Origin: Anthoceros angustus
Taxonomy: Eukaryota; Plantae; Anthocerotophyta
DNA: 49,750 nucleotides
Reading direction: 5' to 3'
Assembly: GCA_010909165.1 (NCBI GenBank)
Contig: MU008240.1
Span: 1-49,750 of the forward strand
Shown here piece by piece: positions 6,173 to 42,500 of this stretch. A program made the position numbers and the translations under genes. The number at the start of each line of letters is the position of its first letter. Within the stretch, counting starts at the first letter, position 1. Under the pieces are notes generated by a model. It saw nothing but the letters and a program-made list of their open reading frames with translations, searched no databases and was not told the DNA's origin.

Positions 6173-6940
6173 TCAACTCTGCTCCTCTTGTAGAAGAGCA
6201 CCGACAACCTCATTAAGGCTAATGGTCGAAGGTTGTCCAGTAGCAACGGCTTTATAGGAGTCTCTAAGAGCAGCATTCTGACTAGACACAAAATTCTGAT
6301 ACGAAGAACGAAGGCTGGACAAAAGTTGGGCAGTCACATCCACCTCAGTCATACGGCTACCTAACGCGGCAAGCTGAGCCCGCAGGTACCGTAACTTGGT
6401 GACATGAGCCCCAACAAGGTCCCCTTCCTTCATCCGCAATCCAAAGAATTCATTACGTGTAGCAACAAGAGTAAGAATGTTCTGCACCTGATATGTGTCT
6501 ACCAGTTGTTTCCAGACCTCAGCTGCAGTGTCTAGAAACTCCACTTCTGTAACAGTGGTTTCATCTAATCCCAATAAGAGAATGGCAAACGCAACTTCAT
6601 TGCCCTTCTTCCACTTGTCTTTTTCATTTTGTGTAGGACCTGTTCCTCCAGAAAGAACCACAACCTGAGAGGGATCAGGCAATGATCCATCGACATATTC
6701 CCAAACATCACGGGCATTCAGAGTATCCTTCATTCTGGCTCGCCAGCTCTCAAACCGGGTAGGTTTTCCATCAAACCTATCCTTTTCTTTAAACTCACCA
6801 GAGTAAGAAGAGAAAGGAGAAGTGAGCGAAGAGGCTAAGATGGTTGCTAGATGTGGTGAGGACACATATGAGAGCCAAAGAGCATTCAGTGGGTCAAAGT
6901 TCATGACAAGGGAAGGCTGTCTAGAGCAAAAGGTGGGCAC
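6173..6940 (-). CDS. Copia Gag (Retrotran_gag_2/UBN2-type), 255 aa visible
   Basis: RFDG..FESWRARMKD.L...VWEYVDG...W...NEVAFAILLLGL...TAAEVWKQL..TY...RNEFFGLRMKEGD.V..HV..L..L..QL..LG...LLSSL..SY.NF is the typical Copia gag pattern. Confidence 0.85.
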   Translation of the reverse strand: MPTFCSRQPSLVMNFDPLNALWLSYVSSPHLATILASSLTSPFSSYSGEFKEKDRFDGKPTRFESWRARMKDTLNARDVWEYVDGSLPDPSQVVVLSGGTGPTQNEKDKWKKGNEVAFAILLLGLDETTVTEVEFLDTAAEVWKQLVDTYQVQNILTLVATRNEFFGLRMKEGDLVGAHVTKLRYLRAQLAALGSRMTEVDVTAQLLSSLRSSYQNFVSSQNAALRDSYKAVATGQPSTISLNEVVGALLQEEQS

Positions 6941-7269
6941 TCCATGAACAGTCGTGTAAGTTTTATGGCGAAACTACAGACTGATTCAAAACGAGGTGGC
7001 TAAGCTAGACTAACCTAAAAGAAATTCATGTGAACTGTGACTAAAAAACGGTTCAGTAACCTAATGCTCAGGAGGTGGAGAACTCAAGGGGCGTTTTGAT
7101 CAGTGGCACATAGAAGAAAACCAGCAACACTTGTACACCTTGAGGCTCCAGCCAACTGACACCTTGATCAGGGGTGTCGGTTGAGAGCTTGAAGGTGCAG
7201 GCTATGGCCCCTGGTGACAGTTGAAATCTGCGCCTTGAAACTTCACTGTGATCCTCTGCACGCTCTCTC

Positions 7270-10270: not shown

Positions 10271-12110
10271 CCACTCCTCTCCTCGAATGAAGTGATACTT
10301 CACATCCACATGTTTAGTCTTCTCATGAAACCTTTATTCTTTGCCAATTGGATAGCACTCGCTATCACAATGCAACTTTCTTGTGACTCAACCTTGATCC
10401 CCAAGTCTCCCACTAAGCGAGCAAGCCATATGGCTTCCTTGCAAGCCTCGATTCTTTTAACATACCACCTCTGTGGTAGATAGCATAATGCCTTGCAAGC
10501 AGAAATGGCCATGAGGCGCCCTCCATTGCACATGAAGACATAACCTGATGTGGACCTCCTTTTGTCCATATCCCCTGCATAATCAGCATCTATGTACCCA
10601 ACCACATGCATCTTCACTACCAAAACATATGCACAAAGCTTTTGTACCATTCATATACCTCATAACTTCTTTTACTGCCTCCCAATGCTTCTTGCCGAGG
10701 GTTTGACATAAACACACTAACCCTCCCCTTTGCAAAGGCAATGTCGGGGCGTGTAGCAATCATTGCATACATCAAACTCCCTATGAGTATGGGACCTTCT
10801 CCATTTCATCTTTGTCCTCCTCGAGCTTGGGCAATCCTTTGAAAGTTTCACATATGGGCAATGGAGTACCCAATGGCTTCCCCTTCTCCATGTTGAAGCG
10901 TTGAAGCACCACATTAATGTTGCGAGACAAATAAAGCGGATGCTTATGTCTATTCCGAATACACATGCCATGCCAATGTATGGCTCGCCTCTCCCAAGTC
11001 TGTCATTTCAAAGTGAGCATTCAACTTTGACTTCAACACTGAAATCTCATCCGTACTGTTTCCAGCAATTAGCATATCATCCACATAGAGGATCAAAATG
11101 AGTAAGCTTTGAACCTTAGCTTGCTTTGTATAGAGGCAATGATCCTCATCGCTACGTTTGTAGCCTTGAGAAAGCATAAATGAGTGGAACTTGTGATACC
11201 ACTCTCGTGCTGTTTCAAACCATAAAGGCTCTTCCTTAACACGCACGATTCTCTTTGCCCTTCTCAACAAAACCTTGGTTCTTTGCATGTAGACGTCCTC
11301 TTGAAGATCACCATGCAAGAATGCCGTCTTGACATCCATCTGCAAGTTCCATATCATTCCACGGCAACCAAAGCAAGAACGCCATAAGTTGTCATTTTGA
11401 CTCTTGGTGAGAAAATCTCATCAAAGTCAATGCCTTGTTGTTGCTTGAAACCCTTAGCAACCAATCGTGCCTTGTACTTTGGTTTGCCATCATGAGTATG
11501 ACCTTCATCTTGTACACCCTGCACGCAGAGTGCCTTCTTATCCTAGGCAAGCAACAACTCCCAAGTTTGGTACTTATGCAGTAATTCATTTCGATCGCAT
11601 GGCCTTCTCCCACTTTTTGTTACTCATTGACATGGCCTTTGTAAGAAGAGGGTTCCCCACAACTGTCAAAGATGACATAATCCGTAGATGGATCATACCC
11701 GTGAGGTCGTGTAATCCTCGCCTCGACTGACAAGCATTAATACTGTCCTCCTCTAAAGAAAAGTCTTCCCAAGTGGCATCTTGTTCTCATTGAAGAACAC
11801 GCCGTTAGTACGAACAACCTTTCTAGCCTCGGATCCCACAAACGGTATCCCATCTCACCACCATATAGCCAAGAAAAATACATTTCTTGGACTTAGGTGC
11901 CAACTTGTCCCAAACTCTTTGAACATGGCAAGATGCCTCATACCCAAACTCGCAGATGCTTGTAGGATGGTTCTTTCCGCACCATAGCTCCTCCGAACTC
12001 ATCAACAAATTTTTATTAGGAGATCTGTTAATAAGATGAACTGCAGACACGCCGCCCAAAACCCATTAGGCAATCCGTAGTTTGACAACAAAACCACGCA
12101 TCCTCTCCTC
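10270..12110 (-). mobile_element. Ty1/Copia element B pol remnant (integrase C-part, RT, RNase H; Tnt1/Tork-like)
   Basis: Frameshifted motifs: LPNGFWA (INT), [33 protein letters not shown] (RT), GYIDADYAGDMDKRRSTSGYVF, EACKEAIWL, HVDVKYHFIRE (RNase H). Confidence 0.92.
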
Positions 12111-16552: not shown

Positions 16553-18006
16553 GTCCTAAGATGGCTATCGGAAGGCGCCCACAATTGGGCGATCCTAGGT
16601 CGATGACATCCTAACCAAATTATCTTTAGGTTGCTACCACCTCACCTCGCTGCTCTGCGCGCCCTACCTCGGCTGCAGCCTCGTCCTCCATTCGCCGAGC
16701 TCTCTCACCTTGCCGGGTCGGAGTTCTCCACACTACTTCCACCTCATCGCTGCTGGAATTTGAGGTGTACCACCTTACAGGGCTTCGCATCTTCGGCCTA
16801 TTCTTGAGGATTATTCGGCTCCTCGTCCACCCAAGCTGGACCTCCTCCTCGCTCAACTCCTCCAAAGTCGCCTCCACCGCATAGCCAACCCCCACGCGTG
16901 GTAGAAGTATGCCGGGTCCTCACTTGCGATGGTAGGCCACGATCCCTCCTATTTCCACACATTCACCAACTTGGTGGTCATCTGTCGCGCTCTTTGGCGG
17001 ATCTAGCACGGAGTGTTGCTTCTGAGGTGGTTTTGAGCTCCTCTCAATTTCTTCTCGGCATCCTCCGGCTCCTTTCGTAGGTCTCGAGTTCGGCCACGAA
17101 CTTGGTCACCTCCGACACGGTCCACTAGGGCGTCCATAGATCCTGCGCCCACTTCCTTCGGCCAACTACCCTCAGAGGATGCCGGTTCTCAACACTTCCC
17201 TCGCTCCTCCCGTTGGTGCGTGGTCACCAGCTCCTCGGCGTTCTTCTCCACGCCTCTTGTTACTACTTCTTGGTAGGAGGTAAAGCTCCTACCGTAGGTC
17301 CTCCGTCCTCCACAGGTCCTCTGTAGAGGTTCACTCCCTACCAGGTGTTGTCGGCCTTCCAATCCTCAACCCCTCCGGTAGGTGGTCTCGTATCCTTCCT
17401 CCTCCTTTGTCGGCAAGATTGCTTTCACCCCTCCTCCCGTGCGGAGCAAGCTCTCGACCACCCCTAGGGCGTCTCGCGCACCTCTCAATCGGACGTCTCC
17501 AACCAGCCACACGCGTGGGGATCTCAACCGGGAGTGCTCGGCGTGAGGGACCTAGTCGCCCCTCTTATACATCGGTGGGCACCACCCCCGGATTTTAGGT
17601 CCTAAGATGGCTATCGGAAGGCGCCCACAATTGGGCGATCCTAGGTCGATGACATCCTAACCAAATTATCTTTAGGTTGCTACCACCTCACCTCGCTGCT
17701 CTGCGCGCCCTACCTCGGCTGCAGCCTCGTCCTCCATTCGCCGAGCTCTCTCACCTTGCCGGGTCGGAGTTCTCCACACTACTTCCACCTCATCGCTGCT
17801 GGAATTTGAGGTGTACCACCTTACAGGGCTTCGCATCTTCGGCCTATTCTTGAGGATTATTCGGCTCCTCGTCCACCCAAGCTGGACCTCCTCCTCGCTC
17901 AACTCCTCCAAAGTCGCCTCCACCGCATAGCCAACCCCCACGCGTGGTAGAAGTATGCCGGGTCCTCACTTGCGATGGTAGGCCACGATCCCTCCTATTT
18001 CCACAC
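16553..18006 (+). repeat. 408-bp identical direct duplication (16553-16960 = 17599-18006)
   Basis: Offset 1046 bp; identical ORFs 16626-16895 and 17672-17941; flanks differ immediately. Confidence 0.95.
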
Positions 18007-19700: not shown

Positions 19701-20224
19701 GTGCCACCGACCCTCCCACTAATGTAGAGGGGTGACCATGACGTGGACACCACCAACACATGTGGACTTTCCATTGCTGCTTGCATTTTTGTTGTCCATA
19801 CAAAGTTGCCCGATTTTCAACACGCGTTATAGGCAATGCACCCAATGGTTAGCCAAACTATATGAGAGATGAGGACATACAAAACACGGAAAATGTATCC
19901 CTCTATGATTTGTCTTAGGTCTGGGTGGTTTTTTTAATGAAATCAAGAAAACATGGTTTTGGTAGCTTTCAGTATACCTTTCGACCCAGTACACCCTTCC
20001 AACTAGTGACCGGTGAGCCACCATCCCAGGAGACCTTGTTCTAAGTGTTACCTTCCTTAGTTTTAGCTCACATTTATGCAACCATCCAATTCGCCACTAA
20101 GGGCCATCCTCGAGCTAGGACGACCTTTTCCGTCGCACGAGGTAAGCACCTAATTCATATAAGCACTTCCTCAATTAACAACCAAGCAAACAAACTGACA
20201 CGTGAGTACGTGTAGTGCAACTAA

Positions 20225-20829
20225 TAACAACAGGAGGAGTAGCTCGCACGCTGGCACAAACACACCTCCAACAACAACACGCAAATTCCTCACACATCGC
20301 CTGAGTCATAGCTGGCCTCCTCACACACGCCTCAGACAGAGATCTGAGGACAAGCTATGATCCGAGCTTGTCTCAATGGAAGGGTCTATATATACTAGAC
20401 CGCATCGGCATATTCCTAAGATATCCTATTGGCATCAAAGATATGCCTAAATATCCTAAGAATACACTATAATATGCAAGGAATACGCCAAGCATATTAC
20501 TGCCAGCATATTATCGAGCTTATCCACTTAGCTATTGTATCCTAAGAATACACTATAATATGCATGCCAAAGCATATTACTCGAGCTTATCCACTTAGCT
20601 ATTGCTAACTATGTTAATTAACACTAATCAATGCTTAATTAGCATAAGCTACATGTTTAATTAACACTAATCAATGCTTAATTAACATAAGCACATTAGA
20701 TTAATTAACACTAATCAATGCTTAATTAACATAAGCACTTAGATTAATTAACACTAATTACTTACTTAAAGATAAGTAATTAGATTAATTAATGCTAATC
20801 AAACACTAAACCCAAGTGCGATTAGTATC
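20225..20829 (-). mobile_element. LTR 'Y' copy 1 (probably a solo LTR, flanked by ACTAA)
   Basis: Highly similar to 27994-28584; ACTAA at 20220-20224 and 20830-20834; TATA-like TATATATAG; internal ~70-bp and ~42-bp AT-rich tandem subrepeats. Confidence 0.75.
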
Positions 20830-20933
20830 ACTAAGATGACATGCCGCAGGTAAGCACTTGAATTCATATAAGCACTTCCTCGACCAACAACCAAGCAAAC
20901 AAATCTAATACGCAGTATATAGGTGCAAACCAA

Positions 20934-20942
20934 TCCCCCCCT
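20934..20942 (-). promoter_or_regulatory. Polypurine tract of the DNMT/PHD Gypsy
   Basis: AGGGGGGGA followed by T-TGGTTTGCAC (probable 3' LTR start at 20932). Confidence 0.75.
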
Positions 20943-21001
20943 GATAATGTGAGACTCCAAGTCAAAACATTATCATTAGTAGGACTACATACGTACGCAC
21001 C

Positions 21002-21150
21002 TCATGTAGTGCATTGTGCACAAAACCAATCTTCCTCGGGAATGTCGTCAAGAGGTGGTTGAACACAAAACATGTGGTATCCCCTATTGCACCGATCACA
21101 AAGAAGCATTACATCATCATCATCGACGTCCACAAAACCCGACACTCCAA
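21002..21150 (-). pseudogene. PHD finger at the C-terminus of the integrase
   Basis: Not in the ORF track. Minus strand: LECRV(C, after indel)..VDDDDVMLLCDRCNRGYHMFCVQPPLDDIPEEDWFCAQCTT* = C4HC3; stop TGA at 21002-21004. Confidence 0.93.
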
Positions 21151-21299
21151 GTCTTTGGGTGGACGCCACATATCAGTAGTTGAGGGTCCAAATTGGGTAA
21201 GTGGCATGTGCGCAGTTCTTGAGGTGATCCTTCCATCTTCGGCCATCGGATCCTTCGAGCTCAAGCACTCCATCTTTGCCTACTCGCACGACCCGCAAG

Positions 21300-22350
21300 A
21301 TGACTCACGGTGGATACCTCCAAGGTGTTGCTCGCTTCCGGCGGTAGACATAATCTCCAACTTCGAACTTGCGCACCTTGGGTTTCCATGTCCCTCCTCG
21401 TGTAAGCATAGCGCAGCTTGATCCTGTGTTGCGCTATGGCAAGGTTCTCCATTGCCATGGGCATGATCCGTTTGAAAAGCTCCCGCCTTTCGGTCTAGGC
21501 AATCATCCGCGCGCCAATCCACGTGCTTGTAGCCTTGCTTGCCTCACGTTTGGCAAAATGGTTGTCGCCCATACAACAAGTAGTATGGTGAAAAATTGCT
21601 CAAGGCTTGATTGCTCACCCCGCACTAGCACTAGGTATGGCATCCCTTCATCCCATGTCTTGGTCATTTGTGAGACAATATTTGCGCAAGGCCCGCTTGA
21701 AGGTCCGCAAGCGCTCAGAAGTCCATCGGCTTGAGGATGATCTCGACGACGTCGATGATCAATCAAGCTCTGTCAAGCAAGTCTTGAAATTCCCACGAAT
21801 TCTTTGCCCGGTGAGAACCTCGCACATGCTCCATATCGACTAAGAACGGAAGCCAAGAACGCCTTGGTAAGCCGAGAGTCACGCTTGGGTAAGATGGCAA
21901 CCTCGCACCACTTGAAATGCTCCACCATTAGCATGACATGCTTGTTTCGACGGCCTCGCATGTCCGGCATGAGATCCACACTCCACTGTAGAAGAGTCCT
22001 CGGATCGGCAGAGAGTGAAGCACAACATCATTGGTGTGAACCTTGCCTTCACTCGATCGCACTCTACATTCTGCGACCAGCCTTTCCACATCTCCATACA
22101 TCCTTGCCCAGAAGTGTGTGGGCCTGAGCATGCTGTAGGTGCGCTTAGCACCAAAATGCCCTAAGCCTTCATGCACCTGGGTGATGAGTCTCACCCGGTC
22201 CTCCGGCTTGGGTACAATTCTATCTCCCGCAGAATCACGGACATACATTATGTCCTCCTTCCAATAGTACCGAGCCACCTTCTCGCGTAGCTTGGCCTGC
22301 TTCTGAGATGAAAGCCCTTGTGGCAATTCCCCAGACCTTAGGAAGGTCAC
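21300..22350 (-). pseudogene. Gypsy integrase (H2C2 zinc-binding domain and core)
   Basis: IVPKPEDRVRLITQVHEGLGHFGAKRTY...W..MYGDVERLVAECRV; LPIRGLFY; VLMMVEHFKWCEVA; LSRYGAC; WDEGMPYL; MAMENLAIAQHR. Confidence 0.92.
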
Positions 22351-22559
22351 CGCTATTGCATCCGCCCAGATGTCCCTGACGGACTACAAAGCGATGAGTG
22401 GAGGCTCTTGATCCTCATGCGATGGCCAACATGGTATCTCGGACTACTCTCCCCGGCTGGTTCGTCATCCGAATCTTGCCCGGCCCCGTAGTGTCTTCGA
22501 CGGTAGAGAGGATTCCTTGACAACCCATCGATTAGAGTGAACTCTACCGCCGGTGTTCG

Positions 22560-22940
22560 ATGACAAAGTCATACTCGGAGAATGAGAGCCCACCGCCGCC
22601 TTTCCTGTAAGCTTGGCGCCATCAACCAATGCAAGGGTTGATGGTCGGTGATTAGTCGAAATTGATGTCCAAACAAGTACGGACGAAAGTGTCCGACGCC
22701 CACACGCAAGACATTCTCCTTCATAGGCGAGTAGTTGGACTCACTGGTTGTTGCTCCGACCGCATAGGCAATGACATGTTCCTCTTCCTTGTCATTGATC
22801 TGCGCCAAGATCGCCTATGCGCCGATTTGCTCCAATCGAAAGTACGAACGGCCATCAAGTTTGGATGACCAAGAATTGGCGAGCTCATGAGTCTACCCTT
22901 CAACTCCATGAAAGCGACTCCTCTTGAGTCCAACGCCAAG
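22560..22940 (-). pseudogene. Gypsy RNase H
   Basis: AFMELKGRLMSSPILGHP, EEHVIAYA, ESNYS, HFRPYLFGHQFRLITDHQPLHWLM. Confidence 0.92.
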
Positions 22941-23049
22941 TCACCAACTTCTTCAACAAGTCATTCAATGGCCGCAATCTCGCTCATCCGTGGAATGAAC
23001 TTCTAGTAACCGCCAAACCCAAGAATGCCCTCAACTCGAGATGTCGTTT

Positions 23050-23700
23050 GGCTCGAATGCGCGATTGCCTCCACCTTGGTGGCATGCGGCGAGATCCACG
23101 CGTGATCCAATGACCCAAGTACAACACCTTATCCTCTCAAATCGACACTTCTGGATGGGCCTTCAACCCAAGCCAGCCTAGCAAAGACTTTCAAGATGTT
23201 GTAGATGCTCCTCAAAGGTATTGCTGAAGATGATGACGTCATCAATGTAGCACTTGGCGAAATGCAAGTCCTTGAGCTCATTGTCCATGTACCTTTGAAC
23301 TGCGTTGGCGTCTTCAACCCAAATGGCATGTAATTCCACTCGTACAAGCAATCTCCCAACGCCGCTTTTGTCTTCTTGGCGATCTCTACTTGGTGAAACC
23401 CTAGCCTCAAGTCCAATGTTGAGAAGAACTTGTGACCCAATGGTGTCGAAGATCTCTTACCGTCGGCATGGGATAGTGGTCATGTGGGATTCTGCTCAAC
23501 GGCCGATAGTCACCACACATTCTCCTCTCCGTCCACAATCCATTCTCATCCTTCTTTTCGAAGAATCGCCGCATGCGTCATGCGAGTTAGATCGTCGAAT
23601 CACCCTAGCTTGAGAAGCTCTTGGCATCGATTCTCAACCAAATCCCACTCATTTTGCCGAGCCTGCGCCTGAACACCGGGTTCATCTGTCTATGTGGAAC
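23050..23700 (-). pseudogene. Gypsy reverse transcriptase
   Basis: KFFSTLDLRLGFHQV, YEWNYMPFGLK, CYIDDVIIFS (YIDD at 23238-23249). Confidence 0.95.
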
Positions 23701-23959
23701 TTCCCTTTGGTGTACTTCCCCATCTCCGCAAGCGTGAAAGCAAACACATGTCGCGATGCCTCCAACAACTCCTTTAGCCGACGCCGCTGATTGCTCTTCA
23801 ACTCGACGTTAACCACTCATGTGGTGTGGCTCGATGGCTTGCACGCTTCCTCACGTGCTCGCTCTCCTTGCCTCCAAACTCGCCTTCTCCGCTGAGATGC
23901 GATAATGTCCTTCACCCACCGAACCCGCCGCTCAACCCCGCCTTCGGTTTCGGTTGGTT

Positions 23960-24835
23960 TCCGCTAAACAACCGTCATCATGTTCACGCCAAATGCTTGC
24001 CCAAGCAGACATTCCTTCTGGCCACTCCCTTGTCTCTGTCGATCAAATCCATGGCCAACTCCTCGTGGTGTTGGCTCTCCCAAGGCCTCGCCATGTCTCC
24101 ACCACAACGGGGGCCATGGTTCTGGCGTAAGACTTGGACTTAGACACAAAGGTTGGCCAAGCCGCCATGGGGTGTCCAGTGTTCCAGTGGAAGTGCCTTG
24201 TCACCTTGATGACTTGTTGGGCATGCCTTCATGCTAGCACATCCTTGACAACATGATTAGGTCGCTTGGTGAACGACAAGACACTTCAAATGTTCCAAGG
24301 GAGCAAGGTTAGTCCACATGGACCTCAACCTATGAGCCCTCGAACCAAATTGAGTGCATCCAATAGAAGCTCCCGACCCAACACTCCTCGGATCGTGGCA
24401 AAGTCCTGAACTTGCTTCTTCACGCTCATGCCGGGCACATTCTCCAACATGTATCCACAAGGCCTTTCTTGCCCTTTCCGGATCAAGCGCAAGATCCTCA
24501 TCGTCATAGAACAATGTGCGTGGATCCTTGACCTTGACCCTTGCCCAGAGGATAGTCCTTGACACTCCCAACCCCGCGATGACAAGGTCCACCGGCTTGC
24601 CCAAGACAACTCAAATGGGACAACCCTATCATGCGAACATCCATCGGCGCCTTCCGGTAACCCTTCACCGACTCCCACGCCGGAGGTTAGGTACTCCCCA
24701 TCAAGTCTCTTACGCTCTGACACAATCCTTGCTTTTGGATCCGGGTCACAATGCACGATCTTCGCACTTTGATGCCACACTTTAGCACCGCCCAAGCCGA
24801 TCGATGCCTCCAAAGAGTTCCACGAGCACTATGCC
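23960..24835 (-). pseudogene. C5 cytosine DNA methyltransferase domain (DNMT3/DRM-like catalytic fold, non-permuted motif order) inside Gypsy pol
   Basis: Reassembled across 1-bp frameshifts: I VLVELFGGI (24803-24829); II VHCDPDPKAR; III PMDVR; IV PVDLVIAG-WECQGLS (Cys 24562-24564); V KDPRT.LFYD; VI YMLENVP (24436-24444); VIII QFGSRAHRLRSMWTNL (~24306-24350); IX EPTP.EELAM; X LLGQAFGVNMM (~23979-24008). Confidence 0.9.
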
Positions 24836-25199
24836 GCCTTCCGAGGTCGCCATGTGATGACTGGTGTTTAGGTCACAAACAGCTCAACCCTAGGCAAGAA
24901 CTTACAGCCTCCGCTCATAGGGCACCGGGTCCTCTTGCACCATCCTCCATGCCTTTTGCACGGCTCATTGCTGCAGTCACCACCCGGTGACTTGAAGAAC
25001 CTCCGAGGGTGGTTGCAACCCTAGCTTGTTTTCCTCCTCGCCGAAATCCTCCATCGTATGTTGTTAGACGCACAAGAGGTTCAAGCACGTATGGCGTGTC
25101 CTTCACTACGCCAAACACCGGGTAGACGCTGCTGGCAATGAGGTTCTCATGATCCTTGCCATGCAGAGAGGGATGCGGGCAATCCGCTACTCTGCTCAG

Positions 25200-25560
25200 C
25201 CTTCTCCACTGGGTCGATAGTAGACTGCCTCCGCCCACAAATCCACCATGACCTGTGTTTGTACAAAGCCCGCTCCCAAAGAAGACATCAAAAGTGTCTC
25301 GTGACTGACTGCAAAGGTACCTCGACAAAGGTGAAGTCTGCTTCTTGGTTTGAATGAAACCTTCAGCTTGTACCTTGTCACCCCAACACATGCTCCGTGG
25401 TCCCATGGGTCCGGATCTTCCACTTGGTTTCCTTCAACCTTTCTTGGTGGAGACCCAACGCCTTCCTTCACTCTTCTTCCAACGATCACCCGTGCTCTTG
25501 TCAATCAACACCTCCTTGGTGCGAATCCATTGATTTCAATGTGCCTCCCGATTGTTGACC
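25200..25560 (-). pseudogene. Aspartic protease domain
   Basis: IEINGFAPRRCLID (Asp codon 25500-25502) then, after a frameshift, GARVIVG...LLMSSLGAGFVQTQVMVDLWAEAVYYRP. Confidence 0.65.
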
Positions 25561-25910
25561 AAAGCCACTCCCACTGCAAAGATTCCGCGAGATGCTTGGC
25601 TCGAGGTCAAGAATGACATCATTGCCACTGCACATTGTCGACACTTGCTTCGCCTTCAAGGGTTGTCAACATCCGCCGAGTCAAACCCCTCGACTTCCTT
25701 CACGCCAACCCCATGTCTTGTAGGTCAAACATGGCATCTCCGAAGCTTTTGTGCCATCGCTCCGAACTGCATGGGTTTCTCCACATCGCCCACACTGACT
25801 TTGATGTTGCTCCCACATTGCTCGCTGGCAATGGCTCAAACGACTTTGGCATCTTGGCATAGGTTCGGAAGAGGATCCCAAGCTTCCTTCCGTGTCTTCC
25901 GACACCGGTG

Positions 25911-27200
25911 TCAAGACATCCTCTTCTTCCTCCGAGCTATCTTCTCTCGTAGCCGCCAGAGGTTTCTTCCCTTGCCCCTTGATCCGGTCACCGCCATGTA
26001 TCCAAGCTTGTGCTCATCTTCTTCGCCCCTCCGATGATGAACCGCCGCTCTCCTTGATCTTCGCCCGCACCAACTTCCAGTTTGCAAGGCGCACGAGCCG
26101 CCCATCGCCTTCTTTGATGCTTCCCGCTTTTGTCCACGGACTTCGCCTCCTCCACTCGCGCCTTTGCTCTTCGATTTTGTGGATGAGGTTGACGCAGATG
26201 CATTGGCCGGGGTTGTTGCCGATAACCCGAGGCCGCAATTCGGATGCTTCTCCCAACATGCCGCTTCATTGTGCCCTGCACTCCCACACCTAGGGCATGG
26301 CCTCACCCTTGACTCAATGCATGCTCGCACTCATGAGGGAATGGTCCGTCCTCGGCACCTCACGCAGGGGCTCACTCACTTGGGTGGGCGGCTTGTCTCG
26401 CCGAGCTCCTCCACTGACCTCCGCTCATGTCGCCCACCACCTACTTGTGCCGGAGTAATCACTTGCAAAGACGAGAAAGTGTCACGGGCCCTATCTTGCC
26501 CATCTCGTACACTTCCTTGAGGTGTAGCTTTCTTGCACGCTGTTTGTTGCATGCCTTCAGGCATATGGCAATGCCTGCAAGTATTTCTCGCAGCCTCGGT
26601 CACTCATGATCTTGGTGTCACGCACTAACCGGTCGATTCTTCGATAAGCCATCTTCAGCCTCGCCGACTTCATCTTGAAGTGTGTCACCGAGATCTTCTC
26701 ATCCGTGCTTGCGAAACTCCACCGAAGATGTCAAACATCTCTTCGATGGGATCGTGCCCACTTGCCACCGCCTCCGTCACCGGTTCCTTCGGAGCTTGAA
26801 TCGCTACTCATCGGTCCTCCACCGCTCAACAACGCCTTTTGGCGATAGCACGCCAATGCTTCATCCCCAAGTACTGACATTTGGATGATCGCTGTATCCG
26901 GCCTTCAATTCCATCTCCGCACACACCGCACTGCATTTCTCGATGAAGTCCTCCTGGCAAGCAGCCCGCCCGTGAACAACTCCATTCGATCCTTGTCTCC
27001 TCCCATCTTGACGACTCCAAGAGACAAGTCCTCCTCGCCGCTACCGAGTTGTCCGGCAAAGACTAACGTGTCTTGTGTGTTGCCACCATGATCCTTCAAA
27101 GATTGTTGATTGTGTCGCTGGGTTCCTCCGCCCTTCTGGTACCAAAATCGAGGTGTCGCACTTCTCCTCTTGGTGGACTTCACCGCCTCGATGGACTTGG
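25911..27200 (-). pseudogene. Gypsy gag with CCHC zinc knuckle (26256-26297)
   Basis: PCPRCGSAGHNEAACWEKHP = CX2CX4HX4C in ORF 25911-26330. Confidence 0.8.
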
Positions 27201-27379: not shown

Positions 27380-27830
27380 GAGTTGGATAGCAAAGGCAGG
27401 AACTCAGAGCATTGGGTGGATCAAGTATGGGGTGCCACACTGGAGTTTTGGACAGAAAGTGAAATCACATGGACGATGACATACCCATGTTCATCCGCTT
27501 CCCCTTATCCCTTGAATCCGGGGCCCAAGAGTAAAATACTTGTTTCTCCCTTGGTTGGCCTTAAAAGGCCAGCCCCTTGTGGAGGCCTCATTCCTCCCTT
27601 GGTAGGGGCTTCGCCCGCCTCCTCCTTGGCTTGGCCTTGGCCTCCTCCCTGGCCTTGGGCTTGGGCTTCCTCTCTCCTTGGCCTTGACTTGGGCTTCTTC
27701 GCCTCTCCTTGGCCTTGACTGGGCTTCTTCCTCCCTCGGCCTTGGCTTGGGCTTCTCCTCCCTCCTTCGCCTCACTTGGTCCCCTCTAGGCCTCAAGCCT
27801 GGGCACACTTAGAGTCCCTGCCTACTTGCT
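27380..27830 (-). mobile_element. Low-complexity R/P/E/K-rich gag-like fragment with possible decayed zinc knuckle
   Basis: ORF 27491-27808 (RREEKPKPRPREEEAQ repeats), followed by C..PC...FCPKL-like residues. Confidence 0.35.
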
Positions 27831-27855
27831 TAAAGAGCGAGCCGCCTCACAGAGC

Positions 27856-27961
27856 CTCGCCTAGCGCAAGATCGCCCAGCATCGCCTAGCACCTAGCATC
27901 GCCTAGCTCACCCAAGCATCGCCTAGCATCGCCTAGCATCGCCTAGCACACCAAGCCTAGC
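27856..27961. repeat. Tandem CATCGCCTAG (10-mer) repeats
   Basis: At least five exact and several degenerate copies. Confidence 0.85.
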
Positions 27962-27993: not shown

Positions 27994-28584
27994 TGAACAA
28001 CAGGAGGAGTAGCTCGTGCGGCACAAACACACCTCCCAGAACAACACGCAAATTCCTCACACATCGCCTCCTGAGTCATAGCTTTGGCCTCCTCACAACG
28101 CTCAGATCATATCTAGAGGACAAGCTATGATCCGAGCTTCTCAATGGAAGGGTCTATATATACTAGACTCGCAAGATATTCCTAAGATATCCTATCAAAG
28201 ATACGGAAATATCCTAAGAATACACTATAATATGCAAGGAATATGCCAAAGCATATTACCGAGCTTATCCACTTAGCTATTGTATCCTAAGAATACACTA
28301 TAATATGCAAGGAATATGCCAAAGCATATTACTTGAGCTTATCCACTTAGCTATTGCTAACCATGTTTAATTAACACTAATCAATGCTTAATATAAGCAT
28401 TAGATTAATTAACACTAATCAATGCTTAATTAGCATAAGCACATTAGATTAATTAACACTAATCAATGCTTAATTAGCATAAGCACCTTAGATTAATTAA
28501 CACTAATTACTTACTTAAAGATAAGTAATTAGATTAACTAATGCTAATCAAACACTAAACCCAAGTGCATAGATTAGTATCACA
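27994..28584 (-). mobile_element. LTR 'Y' copy 2 (TG...CA termini)
   Basis: Minus strand TGTGATAC...TGTTGTTCA; homologous to 20225-20829; no TSD or standard PBS seen. Confidence 0.8.
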
Positions 28585-29267
28585 CGGCATGACACCTCCA
28601 CACAAATCACATTTGACATCTATCGCTTTCTATCTTTGCGGCTCACAGCATATCGCGTTCAAGGAAGTAGGATGCCCATGTACCGTTTTCGCCCTTGCTG
28701 CGCACGTACCATATTTAGAGCATGCCTCTCAACCATGACCCCACCGTCATGAGGGAAAACAAGGCCGGGCAAACTTACAAGACGTTTGTTCACCCAGTAT
28801 GACTTAATAATAAGTATAGATTTAAACCTTTAGCGCCTAGAAAGGAAGATTAGTGATTAGTCTTTTTCAATTCCGATATTTAGAGGATGGGAGAAAATTT
28901 CTTGGTGTGCGATAGAGTGGGCTGTTTAGAACTTTGGAGGGAATTCGTAGCCCCAAACGCAGCCTGTTAGGAGGAGTGGGTTGCTAGTGCTTAAAGTATT
29001 GGCTTGGGGTGCTAGTGCTGCCAGCATTGGCATAGGTTGCTTGACAAGGGTTGCTGGAGGATGTTTGTGATATCAAAGAACCTTTGAGTGTATCCTTGGC
29101 TACACTTTATTTAGATTCACTAATCTTTGTATTCTTGTTAACTCACCATAGAAGTGTCACTATAAAATAATACCTTATATGAAGAGAGAAAAGGGGTAAC
29201 CTCCTCTATTTGTCATGTGGGTGCCTAGGCACTAGTCTGGTGCCTAATGGACCAAGCTACAGGCAAT

Positions 29268-29394: not shown

Positions 29395-31351
29395 CTAGAA
29401 TGAAGTCTCCAGCTTGCTCAGATGCTCTGCGATACACCGTGCGTCCATTCCTGCTCCCTTGAGACCTCTCTTGGTGAAACCTGCGGTGAATAGGCCTCTG
29501 TCCCCTTTCCAGTTATGAGGGAAAGATAAATTTGGAATTCCATCGGATCAAATGTTGAGTCATCCCAGTATCATACATGCATATAACAAGATAAGGTTAC
29601 CAAATGATCACGTTTGAAATATTTGATGAAACATAAAACATATCAATTGCAACAAAATTTATTTGTTCAGGTTTCACACTAATAGATAAAAAAATTTGAA
29701 TGTGCAGACCAACAATGCCAACAAAACTCATTCCGTAAATTTCACATCCCAGACCCTGAGTACAGAAGTTAGGACATCCCAGGCCTGAGCAAAGGAGTTA
29801 AAACACCCCAGGCCCGAGCACATAGGTTAAAAATCCAAGGCCCTGAGCTCACAAGCAAACTATATTACTCCAACAAGTTAGCGCAAAATTACCCGAAGCC
29901 AATTGGGCACGTTGCTTCTAAACCCAGTAGCAAAGATGATACAGTCGAATTCTCGGAAAGAACCATCATCAAAGATCGCTCCTGTCGCAGTGATTTCGTT
30001 CACACCTTTCACGACCTTGCAGGAAGTAGTCAAGGAGTCAACACAAAAGCTGAATGCAAATGCCTCGTCTCGAGGCGGCATCATACACCTATTGTAATTC
30101 AACCTGCCAAGATACAGACAGAATTGCAGGCAGGCACGATCTCGAGCAGAAGGCTGCATCAGCAGGCAGGCCTGTATGCGTAGAGTAATGCCAATACACC
30201 AGGTACACTTTGAACATCAAAAGTTACCGTGATATGGCCGGTTTGAATCATCTTGAGTGTGCCAACATCCAGAACAGGAGTGATGCCCTCCTTGTCCTTG
30301 CGCTCAAGAGGCCCCAGCGAGGGCCTCGGGATGCCCCACTTAGCTGTGTCTCCCATCACGAAACGGGCATACAGAAGCAGCAGCATGTCGGTGTATCGAT
30401 AGGACAGGTAACGCAAGAGTGTGGTAGCCACCACAAAAGTTGAGATCCCAAACATCTCCCGAGGGAGAACGTGCATCTGCAGCACATGAACAAGATCAAC
30501 ATATTACCAATGAGATCTTTGTCATGATCGTCAGGGAATTCAAAGGTGACAAGAGATGAAGAGAGACAATGAAGAGAGGCAAGTGTTGCAAAGCAGCAAT
30601 TTGGGAGTGCATCAAATACAGAGTAGCTCACCGGGCTCCGCACAACGAGGCTCGTTCGGGCGCCATGTTGCGCCAGGTCCAGCGACACTTCGAACCCGGA
30701 GTTTCCACTGCCCACCACTAGCACCTTCTTGCCAGACCACTCCCGGCCGTTGCGGTACTGACTGCTGTGGAGCGCTCTCCCACAAAACACAGGTATGCCT
30801 GCAATTGATGGGGTGACTGGATCCGCATTCTCTCCTGTTGCGACCACCAGCCATCTCGTGAGATAAACAGATCTTTTCCATTTTGGATGGATGCCGGTGT
30901 TGGCGACTTCGCATGAGGACGTCACAACTCGCCACATCTGGATACTCTCCAGGTATGATGCGTCAACGACGCTGTGGTTAAACAGCGGGCGGATGGCAAA
31001 TTCCTCAGCGTAATGTTCCAAGTAAGCTTGGAACTGCTTACGCGATGGGTAGGCGGGGTAATCCGCAGGGAACTTCATATAAGGAAGCTCTGAGTGGTCC
31101 TTGGGTATGTGGAGGTGAAGACGGTCGTACGTCTTATTCTTCCAGAGCGAGCCGACGCAGTCAGCCCGCTCTAGGATCATATAGGGTATTCCGCGCTGCG
31201 TCAGGCACGCAGCCGTGGCCAGTCCGGCAGGGCCGGCTCCCACAATGACGGCACCCCGCACAAAGGTAGCCCCACGCGTCACGGATTCAAGCTGGAAATC
31301 CCGTGGAGCAAAGCCATAGGGTCCATCAGCTCTGGCAGCAGAAGAAGCCAT
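29395..31351 (-). CDS. YUC: YUCCA flavin-containing monooxygenase (indole-3-pyruvate monooxygenase), ~420 aa. Exons 30632-31351, 30228-30476, 29893-30015, 29395-29564
   Basis: GAGPAG (FAD), [26 protein letters not shown] (FMO motif), GSGNSG (NADPH), [37 protein letters not shown]. Phase-0 introns at conserved YUC positions (GT..AG for introns 1 and 2). Exon 4 as assembled has a GG acceptor and a 1-nt deletion. Alternative upstream ATG at 31393. Confidence 0.95.
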
Positions 31352-35226: not shown

Positions 35227-35711
35227 CTATACCCCAAGGGGGATAAGGTTTTGGGCACCCCTCCGACGAAAAGGTTTTTTTTAACAGAAGGTAAAATTTC
35301 AACATGTATCAAAATAATTTTAGAGTTTTTCTAATTAAAAATATAATATTTTTATTAAATTAGATAAAATTAAGTGCTTAATACCTATATGGGCCTTATT
35401 TTTCTTCAATAGATAAGACCTATATATTATTAGTTTATATTTTACAGTTTTAAAATCTTATTTGTATAAATTAAATTAATAAACTATTCAAAAACTCAAC
35501 AAAGTGTTTAGGTCTAGAAGACTACCTACTTCTAAGTCTCTTCAAAACATTGTCATTCTTGGGCATACTTGCTTACCAAAGATGGCTAACACTAAGCAAC
35601 CATTGATTATGTCCAAATAGGTGTGTAAAAAAAGAGCAGTACTAAGAAACCAAAGCATTTCCAACAATTGCCAATGCTTCAATTTTACGCCCCAAGCCAC
35701 TCAAAAAGCTA

Positions 35712-36330
35712 TTGAAGGTCAAGAAGTACCAATTGCAAGCTTCTTTTTGTATGGATGCATCAACACGAGCCTTGAAGAGAAGGGTCAAGCAAGAAGGGGA
35801 CAACACTTCCAAAAAAGCAAGAGTAGGGAAGGAGAGGGGAAAATACACGAATTGGTTCAGTGCAAAGCTTTGGCTTCATATTACATCGCTATGAAGACCC
35901 ACAAGAGCTTTATAAATGCCATATCCTACTTGAAGAGAGTCCATAAGAAACCAAGAATGAGTGTTAGTCCATATGAACGTTTGACTAGGGGAACTATGTA
36001 CTCATGGTTTACAAAGCGAGGAGAGTTACTGCCAAAAGATGCTAGGGCTGTTGAGGATGGGTACTCAGCACATCGTAGGATGGAATATCTTGATGTCGTA
36101 GTTGGCAAACTAGAGTTGATAAAGGAGTTTGTGGCAGCATTGAAAGGAATTCGAACAAGTGGCGCACCTCTTTCTAGTCCCATTGTCCAGCCTATTCTCT
36201 ATGAGATTGTAGCTTCTCGAGTTCCTGAGTTGTTGATAGAAACAGAAGGGAAAGGTGGTTTCAAGGTGACAATAAGATGGGCAAGGCAGTTTATCAAGAG
36301 ATACTTATGTTGGTATGGACAAGGGACGAA
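35712..36330 (+). pseudogene. Pogo/Tigger-like (Tc1-mariner superfamily) transposase N-terminal DNA-binding region, truncated
   Basis: RGKYTNWFSAKLWLHI...SFINAISYL...LTRGTMYSWF...LKGIRTSG.PL...IVQPIL..IV....PEL...GFKVTIRWARQFIKRYLCW fits a CENP-B-type HTH; no DDE core. Confidence 0.55.
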
Positions 36331-38599
36331 TGCTTTGATCTCCCCTCTAAACAATTTCGTAGGGGTTTCTATTTTTCTGTGAGGATTTGTGTGTTGAATA
36401 AGAGGTCGGCGGAACCTTGGATTACATTCAAGCATATGCATAGACGACACATGAGTCGGAACATGATGGAAGGACAAGAGGAAGTACGAAATTTGTGCGG
36501 CTAAATATCCCACAAACATGTCCAAGTCGCCTCTCTATTTGGAGTACATGTCACAGCTCATACACCACCCCCCACGCGGGTAAATGGATTCCAGCCTTTG
36601 ACAGTGTAAACAGGGTACAAGTTTATCATGACAATAAAATGTAGTTTTCTTGACTTCCATCGTTCCATCGGATCGAGTGTTGGCAGATTCGTGGATCCCA
36701 GCATGTAAGGCCATGATTTTGTTGTATCTCTGTTTTGGCCTGTTTTTACAAGAAAAATTGGTTTGTTTTGCATAAAAGCCCAAAATAGCGGAATAAGCCG
36801 TTTTTCCCTAGACACTGTTAAATCTCCCCCCCCCTCTTTAGCAGCAAACGACAGGTGATCAGATTATGAGCAGCAAATGGCAGGTGATCAGATTTAAGCA
36901 TGAGTAGCAAACAGCAAACCTGAAATCCATGAGTGAGAAATCTGGTGCGAAAAACCCAGCACACAGCACTCTGTCGAAGGGCCTTGTTCCATAAACACAA
37001 TCTAAAGAAAAAGCATTGTTTTGCCCTTCTTGCAGTTTGGTTTTTGTATTGTAATGGGTCCCTTTAGCACCTTAGGATGCTTTGTTGCGCCGCAACCAGC
37101 AACAATACATCATTCCAATGGCGCAATGTTGCATGCATGCATCGCCCAAAGCAGGATGCTCCCTTGGCCTCCTCCTCGACCTCTGCCTTGCCACCATCTT
37201 CCCATCTCTTCCGCACGCTGCTTTTGAAGCTCTCGCAGCTCAGCTTGGAGCCCACAGCTCAGGCTGCGACCTCTAGGCTAGGCTACGGGACGCCATTGCA
37301 GAAGCGTGGATCTGACCTTTCAAGCGTGCCAGTGAAAAACCAATTCCCATCACGTGCGCCATATTCCTCTTCTTCCTCTTCACGCTGTGCGCAATTGGAA
37401 GAGAGCTTGTAGAGCATAACCTGATCAAGATGTCGTCCTCCTCTGAGGATGCGAACCCCGCTTGACCAAAGACGAGAGGCCACCTTCCTGAGGAAGGCGG
37501 CTAATGCAAAGTGTCTCTGGATAGGGGTTATTCTCCATTAAAGAGGTTGGGGTCCTGAACTGAAATGACCCCGAAACGGACCAAAATGCATCGTCTTAAG
37601 GAAAACCACTCTTTAGACAAGTACTGAAAGACATTGACCATGTTATTTTCTCGCAAACACTTATGCTAATAGGGTTTAAGCCGAAGAAGGTTCGTAGATT
37701 TCACCTTCACGCAAAAGAAGCAACTCGCAAGATGAAAAGAAGCAACTGCGCCGGACGTCCAGCGCAATTGTGAGAGAACAATAACCGATACCCTGATTAT
37801 GGCCATCTCGAGAGGAACAAACTATGACTCTAGAAAGTACCACTGGACCTCTGGAGCATTGTGAGTACACACCCCTGGGATCTCCATTGTTAGAGTCAAA
37901 AACAGAGGAAGGAATTGGAGCAATGCGCCGGATGTTTGGCACATTGGCGCGAGTCTGCTAAAGCCTGCGCCAGACATCCGGTGCCTTTCCTGGAGACCCC
38001 AATCTTGCGGGCATCTAGCACGATGGAAGTGGTGGAGTGGATGCGCCAAGACGTCCGGTGCAAATGTATACGTGTTTGTTTCTATCTAGCATTTGCTTGG
38101 TAAAGGTGTAGATAGACCAAGTGGCATAAGAACTCTAGGGTTAAGCACTCTTGGGTCGGATCAGTGGTTTGCTTGTTTTTGGTGCTTTGAAAACTTTGTA
38201 AGAACTCCACTGTTAAGCAAGCTAGGGGCGGATCAGTACCGGGATGAGGTGTTCATTTTTAGTGGTTTGAAAAACTTGTAAATCATCTCGGTATCTAAGC
38301 GTAAAGTCATGAATATTATTTTTGAAAATCATTTGTTGGTTGACGTTATGTTCTCACATTCGATTTGTATACAACATGTAAAACCTTTTCGCCTACCTAT
38401 GACTTGGTTGGATCTTTTCGATTGGTGTGCCAAATGTCCGGCTCATTTGAGTTTGATGCACGTATAGATGCATGGGCCTTGGTTTCTAGATGAGCTACAT
38501 TTTCCAAAATTTGACATGTATAATGTTGGTTTCTTATGGCCAACCTTTTGAAGACGACAATGTTTCACAGGGAATGTTTTGCAGAGAAGCAAGAAAATA

Positions 38600-39300: not shown

Positions 39301-39552
39301 TAATGATATACAATGTTGATATCATAGTTAGGGTTTAGGGGTTTAAGTTATCCATATATTATATGAAGATATAGGGTTTACTAGATATGGTGTCGTTTCA
39401 TTAGGTTACGTCTCTAAGTGAATAGATACAACGTTTCATTAAGTTTAGTTTTAGTTGTCTTTTCATGCATAAGCAACTTACTTCTTTCTTGATCCAACAA
39501 TGTAATTATTCTATAATGTTTAATTGATCTACATTAGTCCATAAAATCTTCA
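39301..39552 (+). repeat. 5' LTR of Copia C (TA...CA)
   Basis: Near-identical to 45757-46012; followed by TGGTATCAGAGC. Confidence 0.95.
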
Positions 39553-39564: not shown

Positions 39565-42500
39565 TGACCTAGTGTAGGTTGCATTCAAATGAATGCACAT
39601 TGAAATTGTGCATCAGAAAATATGCACAATGCTTTCTTTGATTGTTTTCTTGTTTTATAAATAAGTTAAAATCAAGAAACATAAGATAGAAAAGAATGGG
39701 TGCATTCTGTTTTATTCTATTTTATTTTGATGAATTCATATAGATTACGCAAGATCAGCAGAGTCTAGCGCACTTCCATTGAGTTGCTACTTGAGCAATT
39801 CAATGGAGGCACACTAGAGCACGTGGGCAAAATTATATATGTAAAAATCATATAAAGAAAACAGAAAATGCAGAATGCATTGTATATACAATCGTGGCAC
39901 ATAGCCATGGAAAATTATATCTACCATAATCCCGGTGAATCCTAGGAGGAACAATCAAAATCCAAGGCGGGATCGCAGAATGCCGAGACAAACCCCGCAC
40001 ATCAATTACATGGGCGCATCCTAGTGGAGCAACTTGCCCAAATCAAGCACAAGGAGACACATTGCAGGAGCCTTCAACACACTTCTCGAATTGTTGCTCC
40101 CAACAGAGCTTGACTTGACATTCACATTGTAAATACAGGCAACATCGCCCACTACGAGAACATACACCAACGCTGCTTCCTCAAAGTGTACAATCTGTAG
40201 GTGTAAACACAATTGTTCAGCGTCTTGAGGCTAACAATAGGAATGTTGAAAACAGATGTCGTCAGATTTCAGGTCATGTCGCTTCGGCTAGCATTGATCT
40301 GCAGGATTTGAAAGAGCAGCTAACACACTTAGATTACAAGCTTGTAATGTTGCTGAAACCAGAGTTGTTGGCCAACCCAGCATTCAGAGGTACAGCATGC
40401 AAGCACGTAAGTAAAACTAAGCATGAAAGGAAGTTTGATACACCTAACTCTTGCCCTTCATGCTCCACTTACGCATTCAATAAGTTTGAGATGAGAAACT
40501 CTAAGATAGTCGCGCATAGCTTTTGGGAACAAACCATAGCGCACGCAGAGTGCACGGAGCAACCACAAAACCAACACGCATTGTAAGTAGAATGTATGGA
40601 TGGTGAGAATAGTACAGCAGTGCATGATAGTGTTCATGCTAGTGACCGTGAAGAAGACACATTAGAAAGCTTCTTCAATCAGAGGACAAACTCTTAGGAG
40701 TTCAGAACCCAAAATGGGTGACACATCCTCTACACATAATTTTGAAGGTGAGTCCTTCAAGGAGAAGGACGAGTTCAACTGAAATGACTTGACATCCGGC
40801 TTATAAGAATGGAGGCGTTCTCGAAATGAGAGGCCTCCTCAAACATGCTCTTGGAAAAGTAGTGAAACCAGACGAGGATCTTCGGGAGAGGAAGAATGGT
40901 TAGCTAAGGACAGGAGCCAACCTCATACGCAGTGGCGACAACCGAGATGTTGAGGCGGCGGGTGAATACTTCCGAAATCATGAATCGCCTAAAGGAACTC
41001 TACGAGCGAACATGGTAAGCGCAATGACTCTAAGGAATTTTGAACCTAAGGATGAAGGACGGTGACTCGGTGGAGAAACACGTGAGTACCTTGAGGACCC
41101 TAGCCTCACGGCGTGGTGCCTCAAAGTTGCCATTGGAGATGATGAGATGGTGATGAGGCTCCTTCTTTCGCCCAGAGTCATGGTCACATTTCGTGACTTC
41201 TCATCTGTTTCAAACACAAGCTACGTTGTTAGCTAAAAGCAAGAGAGATGCGAAATGAGCTTCACAGCTCGTGAGTTCCATTTGAAGAAGCCAAGGACCA
41301 ACCATAAGAAAGCAGGGAAACAGCCTGACACCTCACAACAAGGACGAGGAGGAAGAAGCCCTTCTCCAAAGGAGGTGGTGGAAACTCTTCGGGGAGGTAG
41401 CTCGGATCCTCACCCGGAAGAAAAAGAAGCTGTGAACTCGCAATCGGTGCAAGCCGCGCCATTGGGAAAAGAGTGCAAAAAGCGGTGGAGTTCCTCGCAA
41501 GGAGGGAACCACTCAATCAAATGTTGTGGTAAAAAGGTTAATACCCCATCTCTTACTTGGGACTAGGAGTTTGCTAGTCCATTCTTTCCCACTTGTCTTT
41601 CCTCCAAAGTGAATCAAACCAACATGAATGGTTCTTAGATACGTGCTTGCACATATCTGCTTTGATAGGAATGAATTTAAAACATCTGATCGGGATCAAT
41701 ATGTTTACCTTGGGACGATAGGTCTCTAGTCTCACTCGTGGCAGGAGTTAATAGTTCCACTGGAAACACACTCAAGTTAAGATGTCTACCATGTGCCCGA
41801 GATGACTAGAAACCCGATCTCCGTTAGAAGATTGAATCACATAATACCATGTCGTGTTCACAAGAGCATTGCGTAATCATAGATGCATTTGACCCTAGAA
41901 AGGTACTTGCGCATGGGTCTTGGACCATGATCCGCTCCGCTCCATTTGCAGTGGAGTAGTCCCACCGACACAAGACGCCTCCCTTGCATCCGCACAACAA
42001 ACGAAAGGCTCGGGTGGCATGCACGCCTAGGTCATCCTCACATGGCAAAGCTACAAAAATTGGCTATGAGTGACTGTATCAAGATGGACCTATTGGCCCT
42101 TGACTCCTATACCCTTATGTGAGGCTTGTGTTTTGTCGAAGAAACACCAAGTTGCCTTCAAGAACAAAGCACCTCACCGTGCATGTACTTGAGCTTGTAC
42201 ATCGATTTGTGTGGACCCTTATCTCAAGCGTCCATTGGTGGTGGGCGTTATTTCTTAACGCTTACGATGACAAAAGTAGATTTGTCACCACCTACATCCT
42301 CAAGAACAAGAGCGAATGTTTCTCCTATTTCAAGGAATACATCAAGTTCAACGCGTTGGTGGAAAGCCAAGACACTAAGATCGAGAATGAATGGGAATTC
42401 ACCTCTAATGAATTCCAGCAGCCTGTAAAGATGAAGGCATTGGGCGTCAACTCACGGTGGTATACACTCCCCAGAATGGAGTGGCGAGCGTTTGAATCTC

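Follow-up and report, generated by a model that had tools for sequence, protein, structure and literature searches.

Does the window analyzed here (the whole stretch of DNA, 49,750 nucleotides) hold a cytosine methyltransferase that belongs to a retrotransposon, and is the host of that retrotransposon a land plant? An earlier note, made from the sequence alone, had placed a DNMT3-like methyltransferase at 23960..24835, embedded in a Gypsy polyprotein. We find on the minus strand, from 28594 to approximately 20135, a Ty3/Gypsy retrotransposon (herein referred to as the source element) that encodes protease, a DNMT3-like methyltransferase, RT, RNase H, integrase, and a PHD finger, and whose repeats follow the layout A-coding-B-A-B, with no B copy beside the first A. 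On balance we judge it probable that this Ty3/Gypsy element with its pol-borne DNMT3 is a likely land-plant member of the Gypsy-DNMT3 group known from Klebsormidium, and that its methyltransferase is packaged and methylates the element's own cDNA, probably at CG. The features of the element and of the gene beside it are as follows:

29413..31351, minus strand: host gene for a YUCCA flavin monooxygenase, its four exons intact, outside the element (Pfam and homologue alignment)
27996..28594, minus strand: repeat A1, the 5' terminal repeat, first bases TGTCAT (alignment to A2)
26600..27200, minus strand: putative gag region (position only)
25150..25570, minus strand: aspartic protease domain (colinear with the protease of the relatives P0116 and P0152; score 42 with L015, shuffle maximum 26)
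23967..24871, minus strand: DNMT3-like C5 cytosine methyltransferase, motifs I-X unpermuted (frameshift-aware alignment scores against controls)
22509..23765, minus strand: RT (YIDD at 23249-23238) and RNase H (Pfam on fragments; 339 bits when read through)
21175..22377, minus strand: DDE integrase with H2C2 zinc finger and C-terminal extension (Pfam Integrase_H2C2, E 5e-12)
21005..21172, minus strand: PHD finger at the pol terminus (Pfam PHD, E 2e-13)
20935..20943, minus strand: polypurine tract, a G run directly before B1 (read from the sequence)
20842..20934, minus strand: repeat B1, about 92 nt, its CA end abutting A2 (alignment to B2)
20226..20841, minus strand: repeat A2 (alignment to A1)
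20135..20225, minus strand: repeat B2, the 3' end of the element, last base approximate (alignment reaching 20140)

The order protease, RT, RNase H, integrase, together with an RVT_1-type RT and a DDE integrase, identifies the source element as Ty3/Gypsy; on fragments, Pfam recognizes RVT_1 (E 1e-3) and RT_RNaseH (E 3e-14), and integrase and PHD finger together score 473 bits in frameshift-aware alignment. The positions earlier given for the protease aspartate and for the YIDD motif of RT are both borne out, with the catalytic Asp codon at 25502-25500 and the next two codons struck by a break. Pfam searches with the protease fragments and with the gag region gave no match, and the gag alignments to two relatives score 27.7 and 33.7, not significantly above the shuffle maxima of 27.9 and 32.8. 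The ends of the element depart from the plain two-LTR plan with primer binding site (PBS) and target-site duplication: the repeats run A-B-A-B (the alignment of B1 to B2 scores 96, and that to the sequences flanking A1 16-17), a polypurine tract is present, no tRNA-type PBS was seen by eye after A1, and inspection of the flanks of the element gave no clean target-site duplication. A DIRS or other tyrosine-recombinase element is ruled out by the H2C2 finger and DDE integrase, and Pfam matched no tyrosine recombinase among 57 element frames. Short tandem repeats, made up of 10-nt CGATGCTAGG-like units and purine-rich units, lie between A1 and the coding region (27490-27960, minus strand), at the site expected for a PBS. 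An Rfam search gave no match.

The claim at the center of this locus was that stitching shifted minus-strand frames yields the motifs of a C5 methyltransferase in order. We recover these motifs on the minus strand in the order claimed, across three shifted frames:

24820-24806, minus strand: motif I, ELFGG (frameshift-aware alignment)
24753-24739, minus strand: HCDPD (frameshift-aware alignment)
24644-24633, minus strand: MDVR (frameshift-aware alignment)
24573-24559, minus strand: motif IV, GWECQ, which includes the catalytic Cys (frameshift-aware alignment)
24447-24436, minus strand: motif VI, LENV (frameshift-aware alignment)
24337-24305, minus strand: motif VIII, AHRLR..WTNL (frameshift-aware alignment)
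about 24008-23991, minus strand: motif X, LLGQAF (sequence reading and alignment)

The catalytic Cys, the Glu of ENV, and both Arg residues of RxR are all present in the methyltransferase of the source element. Its location agrees with the 23960..24835 first proposed, and the start needs a small correction, to slightly earlier, near 24871. Unstitched, the signal is weak (Pfam DNA_methylase in 1 of 60 stop-to-stop frames, E 0.031, under the curated cut-off). Frameshift-aware alignment, the check that had been suggested, places the domain far above shuffled controls, with 152 bits for a profile of 14 relatives (shuffles 16.3 ± 1.6, n = 25, maximum 18.8) and 180 bits for a second profile of 23 locus sequences (shuffles 15.8 ± 1.8, n = 20); with the 14-relative profile, none of the 45 window tiles (of 46) lying clear of the region scores above 19.1. 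Both profiles were built from proteins initially chosen for resemblance to the region, and Pfam independently assigns DNA_methylase to 22 of the 23 sequences behind the second profile. The C-terminal third of the domain (24124-23967) aligns only under a laxer frameshift penalty. Word-indexed homologue searches with the methyltransferase fragment and with the integrase fragment returned nothing, a PDB search with the raw 167-aa frame returned chance matches only, and the three matches from an ESM Atlas search (0.81) are too low for use.

The coding region of the source element is interrupted by 47 frameshifts (44 of them deletions) and two stops in 1099 aligned codons, which amounts to a break every 60-70 nt across all of its domains; the exons of the neighboring YUCCA gene show none. 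A pattern so rich in frameshifts and so poor in stops is what noisy long reads would be expected to give where repeats stay unpolished. We therefore regard sequencing error as the likely cause of the breaks and infer that the real genome holds one reading frame, in which case the copy may be young. A less favorable explanation is that the copy is truly dead, an old relic with real deletions in a genome of strong deletion bias; it would fit the density of breaks in every domain beside intact YUCCA exons, the related loci that are dead copies, and the real-looking substitutions between B1 and B2. We consider it unlikely: 13 decayed related loci (some of them near-duplicates) show the opposite balance, with 18 frameshifts and 104 stops, and the gaps between A1 and A2 exceed the substitutions (25 gap events and 16 substitutions over 640 alignment columns, compared with none and 34 for the repeat A pair of the related locus L008). 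Moreover, if polishing had repaired single-copy genes and left repeats untouched, the same contrast with YUCCA would be expected. Nevertheless, the differences between B1 and B2 are of C-to-T type, and some ageing of the source element is real.

The methyltransferase could also be foreign to the element, either as a fragment of a host DNMT3 captured a single time or as an assembly mis-join, and the assembly is indeed error-rich and contains an exact 408-nt duplication. Relatives make this extremely improbable. The protein P0116 is a single frame of 2188 amino acids with the order gag-PR-DNMT-RT-RH-IN, and the source element is colinear with it across both the PR-DNMT and the DNMT-RT joins, which supports the placement of the methyltransferase inside pol, between protease and RT, that had been read from the broken frames. 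Absence of the segment from other family members had been named as grounds for doubt; the same order recurs in P0116 and in 10 of 44 loci found by a motif scan of metagenomes (the others being 18 with DNMT after RNase H, eight DNMT-integrase loci without RT in view, and eight with DNMT only). Furthermore, the methyltransferase is intronless, it is 25-40% identical to element methyltransferases (vs. 19-22% between the family and DNMT3A/B), and no repeat of at least 40 nt lies at its borders. In the assembled sequence and its relatives, none of the outcomes earlier named as refuting was seen.

These relatives with the order PR-DNMT-RT (P0116 and the loci L001, L002, L004, L006, L008, L012, L015, L018, L036, and L042) share with the source element its domain order, the join motif W-x(3-4)-G-x-x-L-L-[DE]-LF (common to the source element, P0116, and L001), and the branch on which its methyltransferase falls; in 2 of the 10 DNMT-before-RT metagenome loci a protease match lies upstream. 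However, their identity to the source element is only 35-38% in the methyltransferase and 44-49% in RT, the loci are decayed by stops, and no PHD match was seen by domain search in P0116 and P0152, unlike in the source element. L008 and its near-duplicate L012 have the DNMT ahead of RT and further resemble the source element in their A-B-A-B repeats, in the G run preceding B1, and in starting with the same TGTCATG; this full layout occurs in 2 of the 23 loci checked, most of the others being too short or decayed. A 650-nt repeat, approximately 73% identical between copies and probably a nested element, breaks up some of the DNMT-first elements (L004:2438-3077 and 4811-5457; L042:2028-2678 and 10952-11595). 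Other scans gave 0 of 18 candidates (metagenomes, P0116 only), 0 of 115 (prokaryote genomes, methyltransferase alignment), and one distant locus (viral contigs). A viral contig, L045:10001-10837, encodes a methyltransferase with an HRxRxWTNL motif that is 23% identical to the element methyltransferase.

Which kind of methyltransferase the family carries was judged from the family profile and from the stop-free relative L001 rather than from the broken copy in the window. Against solved structures, the profile ranks DNMT3A/3B/3C best (E 3e-21), followed by DRM (6e-11), M.HhaI (1e-8), and DNMT2, with neither DNMT1 nor CMT among its 56 structure matches. A model of the L001 domain (23 sequences, pLDDT 88) matches the fold of DNMT3A/3B (Foldseek E 1.6e-19, TM 0.70/0.80). 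The single sequence of P0116 gave a contrary result, with DRM ranked slightly above DNMT3A. The motif order of the source element is, as had been argued, not circularly permuted, so the enzyme is not a DRM; DRM aligns as two swapped pieces. Taken together, these comparisons uphold the likeness to DNMT3 that had been noticed in motifs VIII and X, and they support an assignment of the methyltransferase as DNMT3-like and unpermuted. The host DNMT3 and DRM enzymes of plants have the DNMT3-family fold in common with the element enzyme but are encoded by multi-exon, free-standing genes, and DRM is circularly permuted. Land-plant DNMT3 is further described as bearing an additional domain of unknown function (PMC12344493, accessible part).

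Motif IV of the source element reads EC instead of PC, a trait shared by 18 of the 49 rows of the family alignment that counts somewhat against assuming activity. Of these 49 rows, 48 retain the catalytic Cys, 47 the Glu of ENV, and 46 and 45 the two Arg residues of RxR, in each case including the source element. The DNMT-first lineages are only 35-39% identical in the methyltransferase (44-49% in RT), and retention of the catalytic Cys despite such divergence points to long retention of the enzyme.

With the integrase fragment as query, 150 proteins were retrieved (22-53% identity over the best stretch), 48 of which carry a methyltransferase by the family profile. Two architectures occur. In the second, unlike in the source element, the methyltransferase follows RNase H and precedes integrase; 23 of the 150 proteins and the 18 loci counted above have this order. 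Gypsy elements of this RT-RH-DNMT-IN-PHD type, such as P0059 (the pol of Scenedesmus sp. PABB004, KAF8056149.1), have a homologous methyltransferase, a related integrase, and a C-terminal PHD finger, and are mostly intact single frames; P0059 and the loci L010-L039 include many intact frames of 5-8 kb. In P0036 (1184-1223) and P0089 (1534-1569), a G-patch domain lies between methyltransferase and integrase. Two hosts of related elements are named, both of them chlorophytes: Scenedesmus sp. PABB004, whose P0059 has the DNMT after RNase H, and Haematococcus lacustris, in whose P0001 no DNMT was seen. The accessible parts of the literature examined do not describe Gypsy elements of DNMT3 type from chlorophytes.

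Near-duplicates, partial domains, and two proteins with tandem domains were left out of our trees. There, the DNMT-first methyltransferases group on a single starred branch that holds 10 rows (97 in the quick tree; a 99/98 split in the careful tree, from which nine further rows were dropped and whose bootstrap is not yet settled). The RTs of 26 elements with DNMT after RNase H form one separate starred branch. The RT of the source element lies on the other side, in an open fork shared by DNMT-first elements and by PHD Gypsies that lack a DNMT, so that the DNMT-first RTs make no resolved clade; its nearest RT by identity is P0114 (52%), a sequence that begins at RT. Thus one DNMT module occupies two pol positions on two RT lineages. 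The direction of the change depends on the root: midpoint rooting nests the DNMT-first group inside the other, and a single long viral outgroup gives the reverse.

The identity of the host is read from the YUCCA gene, whose 3' end lies 0.8 kb from A1. Among the best 120 matches (of the 8000 best candidates scored), all that carry names are land-plant proteins, mostly 50-59% identical, and the exon borders map without break onto the Riccia and Cryptomeria proteins; the land-plant origin proposed earlier is accordingly likely. A tree of 43 rows, with no algal outgroup, places the gene on a deep branch with one sister protein, outside both the Riccia group and that of the seed plants. From the YUCCA sequence, we hold that the host is very probably a land plant, and likely a non-seed land plant. 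If instead the gene were a YUCCA-like one of a streptophyte alga, or the contig were chimeric, the known algal range of such elements would be unchanged. We think this quite improbable, even though no sequence retrieved exceeds 59% identity to the gene, YUC homologues are reported from some streptophyte algae (PMC10015382, accessible part), the YUCCA tree has no algal outgroup, and the two named element relatives are chlorophytes. Weighing against it are the land-plant origin of all named matches in the best 120, an identity of at most 23% between sister-YUCs and YUCs (PMC12659883), and the branching of algal sequences below both groups (PMC10015382), the latter two as given in the available portions of those papers. 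Further points against it are the unbroken exon mapping and the lack of any N between YUCCA and the element, the only N of the window being at 18449.

Gypsy elements bearing a DNMT are already known from Klebsormidium (PMC5890265), and in print, as far as the accessible sources extend, they have so far come from algae only. KnitGypsy-Dnmt3 of Klebsormidium nitens carries, like the source element, an intronless, unpermuted DNMT3-related domain in a Gypsy pol, and its DIRS-like A-coding-B-A-B repeats with Gypsy domains (Fig. 4c legend, PMC5890265) match those described here; its host is a charophyte alga, whereas that of the source element is likely a land plant, and the two are compared by published description. 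The source element thus shows two features of the streptophyte Gypsy-DNMT3 elements, namely an intronless DNMT3 in a Gypsy pol (a single frame seen in P0116 and presumed for the source element) and split direct repeats. SymbioDIRS-Dnmt3 (PMC5890265, accessible part) likewise combines a pol-fused cytosine methyltransferase, with CG activity shown for SymbioDIRS, with the same repeat layout, but it has a tyrosine recombinase where the source element has a DDE integrase. EpiLTRs (bioRxiv 10.64898/2026.05.21.726589, accessible part) also have a cytosine methyltransferase fused into pol; unlike that of the source element, it is sister to DNMT4 and accompanied by an adenine methylase and a chromodomain. 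The idea that Selgy elements, too, carry a PHD finger found no support in the part of PMC6317226 that was available.

Gypsy-DNMT3 elements are cited for "streptophytes," with no species named in the accessible text, in a 2026 preprint and in PMC12344493, and methylase-encoding transposons are described as absent from land plants such as tracheophytes (PMC6338049, accessible part). We found no report of a land-plant Gypsy-DNMT3 in the literature searched, whose coverage leaves out most subscription journals, and the accessible parts of PMC6673714, PMC8557442, PMC10952607, PMC6317226, PMC11244446, and PMC9940879 contain nothing relevant to it. What is new here is a deeply diverged lineage with complete ends, a likely young copy, and the picture of two architectures. 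A land-plant member with the same repeats, together with chlorophyte relatives whose DNMT occupies another position in pol, implies that the group is older and wider than described. Elements of this kind may also be mis-annotated as host DNMT3 genes.

We hypothesize that the enzyme acts on the element's own DNA. By analogy with general Ty3 biology, the protease would release the methyltransferase from pol, and the released enzyme would be carried in the particle with RT and integrase, where it would methylate the new cDNA in cis, probably at CG. Action on cDNA is argued in the discussion of PMC5890265 (accessible part), which also shows that retrotransposon DNMT3s of Symbiodinium (SymbioDIRS) methylate CG de novo in yeast; we rate such activity in cis as about evenly balanced. 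The PHD finger, in turn, would guide insertion into chromatin without H3K4 methylation, a proposal that we hold more tentatively and put somewhat below even. Structure matches of the PHD finger include KMT2D, KMT2C, CHD4, ATXR5, BAZ2A, UHRF1/2, and KDM5, with ING, BPTF, and TAF3 appearing by name nowhere among the 59. Most of the top matches (KMT2C/D, CHD4, ATXR5, BAZ2A, UHRF1, and KDM5) are readers of the H3 tail unmethylated at K4; if the element's PHD finger reads it likewise, insertion would be steered to silent chromatin. A new copy would thus arrive pre-methylated in a matching chromatin setting.

The composition of the elements bears on this in several ways. In favor of CG as the target, CG is depleted at codon joins in 9 of 11 intact DNMT-bearing relatives (z below -4, with no DNMT-less control), a loss that can also stem from host enzymes. 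Against it, CG observed/expected in the source element is 0.68-0.94, exceeding the 0.45-0.46 of two Copia fragments in the window, and the more depleted context is CHG (0.52-0.55 in pol). Unlike most relatives, the intact element L010:3-5993 is depleted in CHG (0.34 of expected) and not in CG.

The enzyme might have another job, acting after integration or in trans (by silencing rivals or host defence loci, or by damping its own family) or mainly binding DNA. In yeast, the DNMT3 of KnitGypsy-Dnmt3 gave no methylation, a result its authors call inconclusive; the same paper leaves the role open and lists a benefit to the host among the options (all PMC5890265, accessible part). The inactivity in yeast and this open role leave room for such a job, as does the occurrence of the methyltransferase at two positions in pol, which means that a fixed contact with RT is not required. 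In the intact frames observed, however, the methyltransferase without exception forms part of a pol that also holds RT or integrase, a constancy that favors action on the element's own intermediates, and its catalytic residues are conserved. We regard another job as rather unlikely and prefer the packaged enzyme acting on its own cDNA. If the copy is young, a culturable plant would allow a test of what a transposon gains from carrying its host's silencing enzyme. A bolder synthesis, to which we give limited credence, is that the source element represents a young, intact, and mobile self-methylating Gypsy lineage in early-diverging land plants, part of a group spanning the green lineage whose single DNMT3 module has moved between two RT lineages and two pol positions, and that the pairing of PHD finger and DNMT3 rebuilds, within a transposon, the H3K4-reading logic of animal DNMT3.

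The remainder of the contig holds further repeats. The exact 408-nt duplication (16553-16960 and 17599-18006) lies beside the only N and is probably an assembly join. Two Copia fragments on the minus strand (5687-6973 and 10953-12065) contain gag and protease, RVT_2, and SH3 by Pfam, and what looks by eye like a piece of Copia integrase lies at 42104-42559 (plus strand), where Pfam gave no match. Two open frames on the plus strand, 35621-36379 (253 aa) and 4681-5157 (159 aa), have no meaningful Pfam match; they resemble DNA-transposon proteins common in bryophyte genomes. A direct repeat, 95% identical and 6.4 kb apart (39301-39552 and 45757-46012), may mark the ends of another element, and 43248-43886 and 46737-47388 form an inverted pair that is 67% identical.
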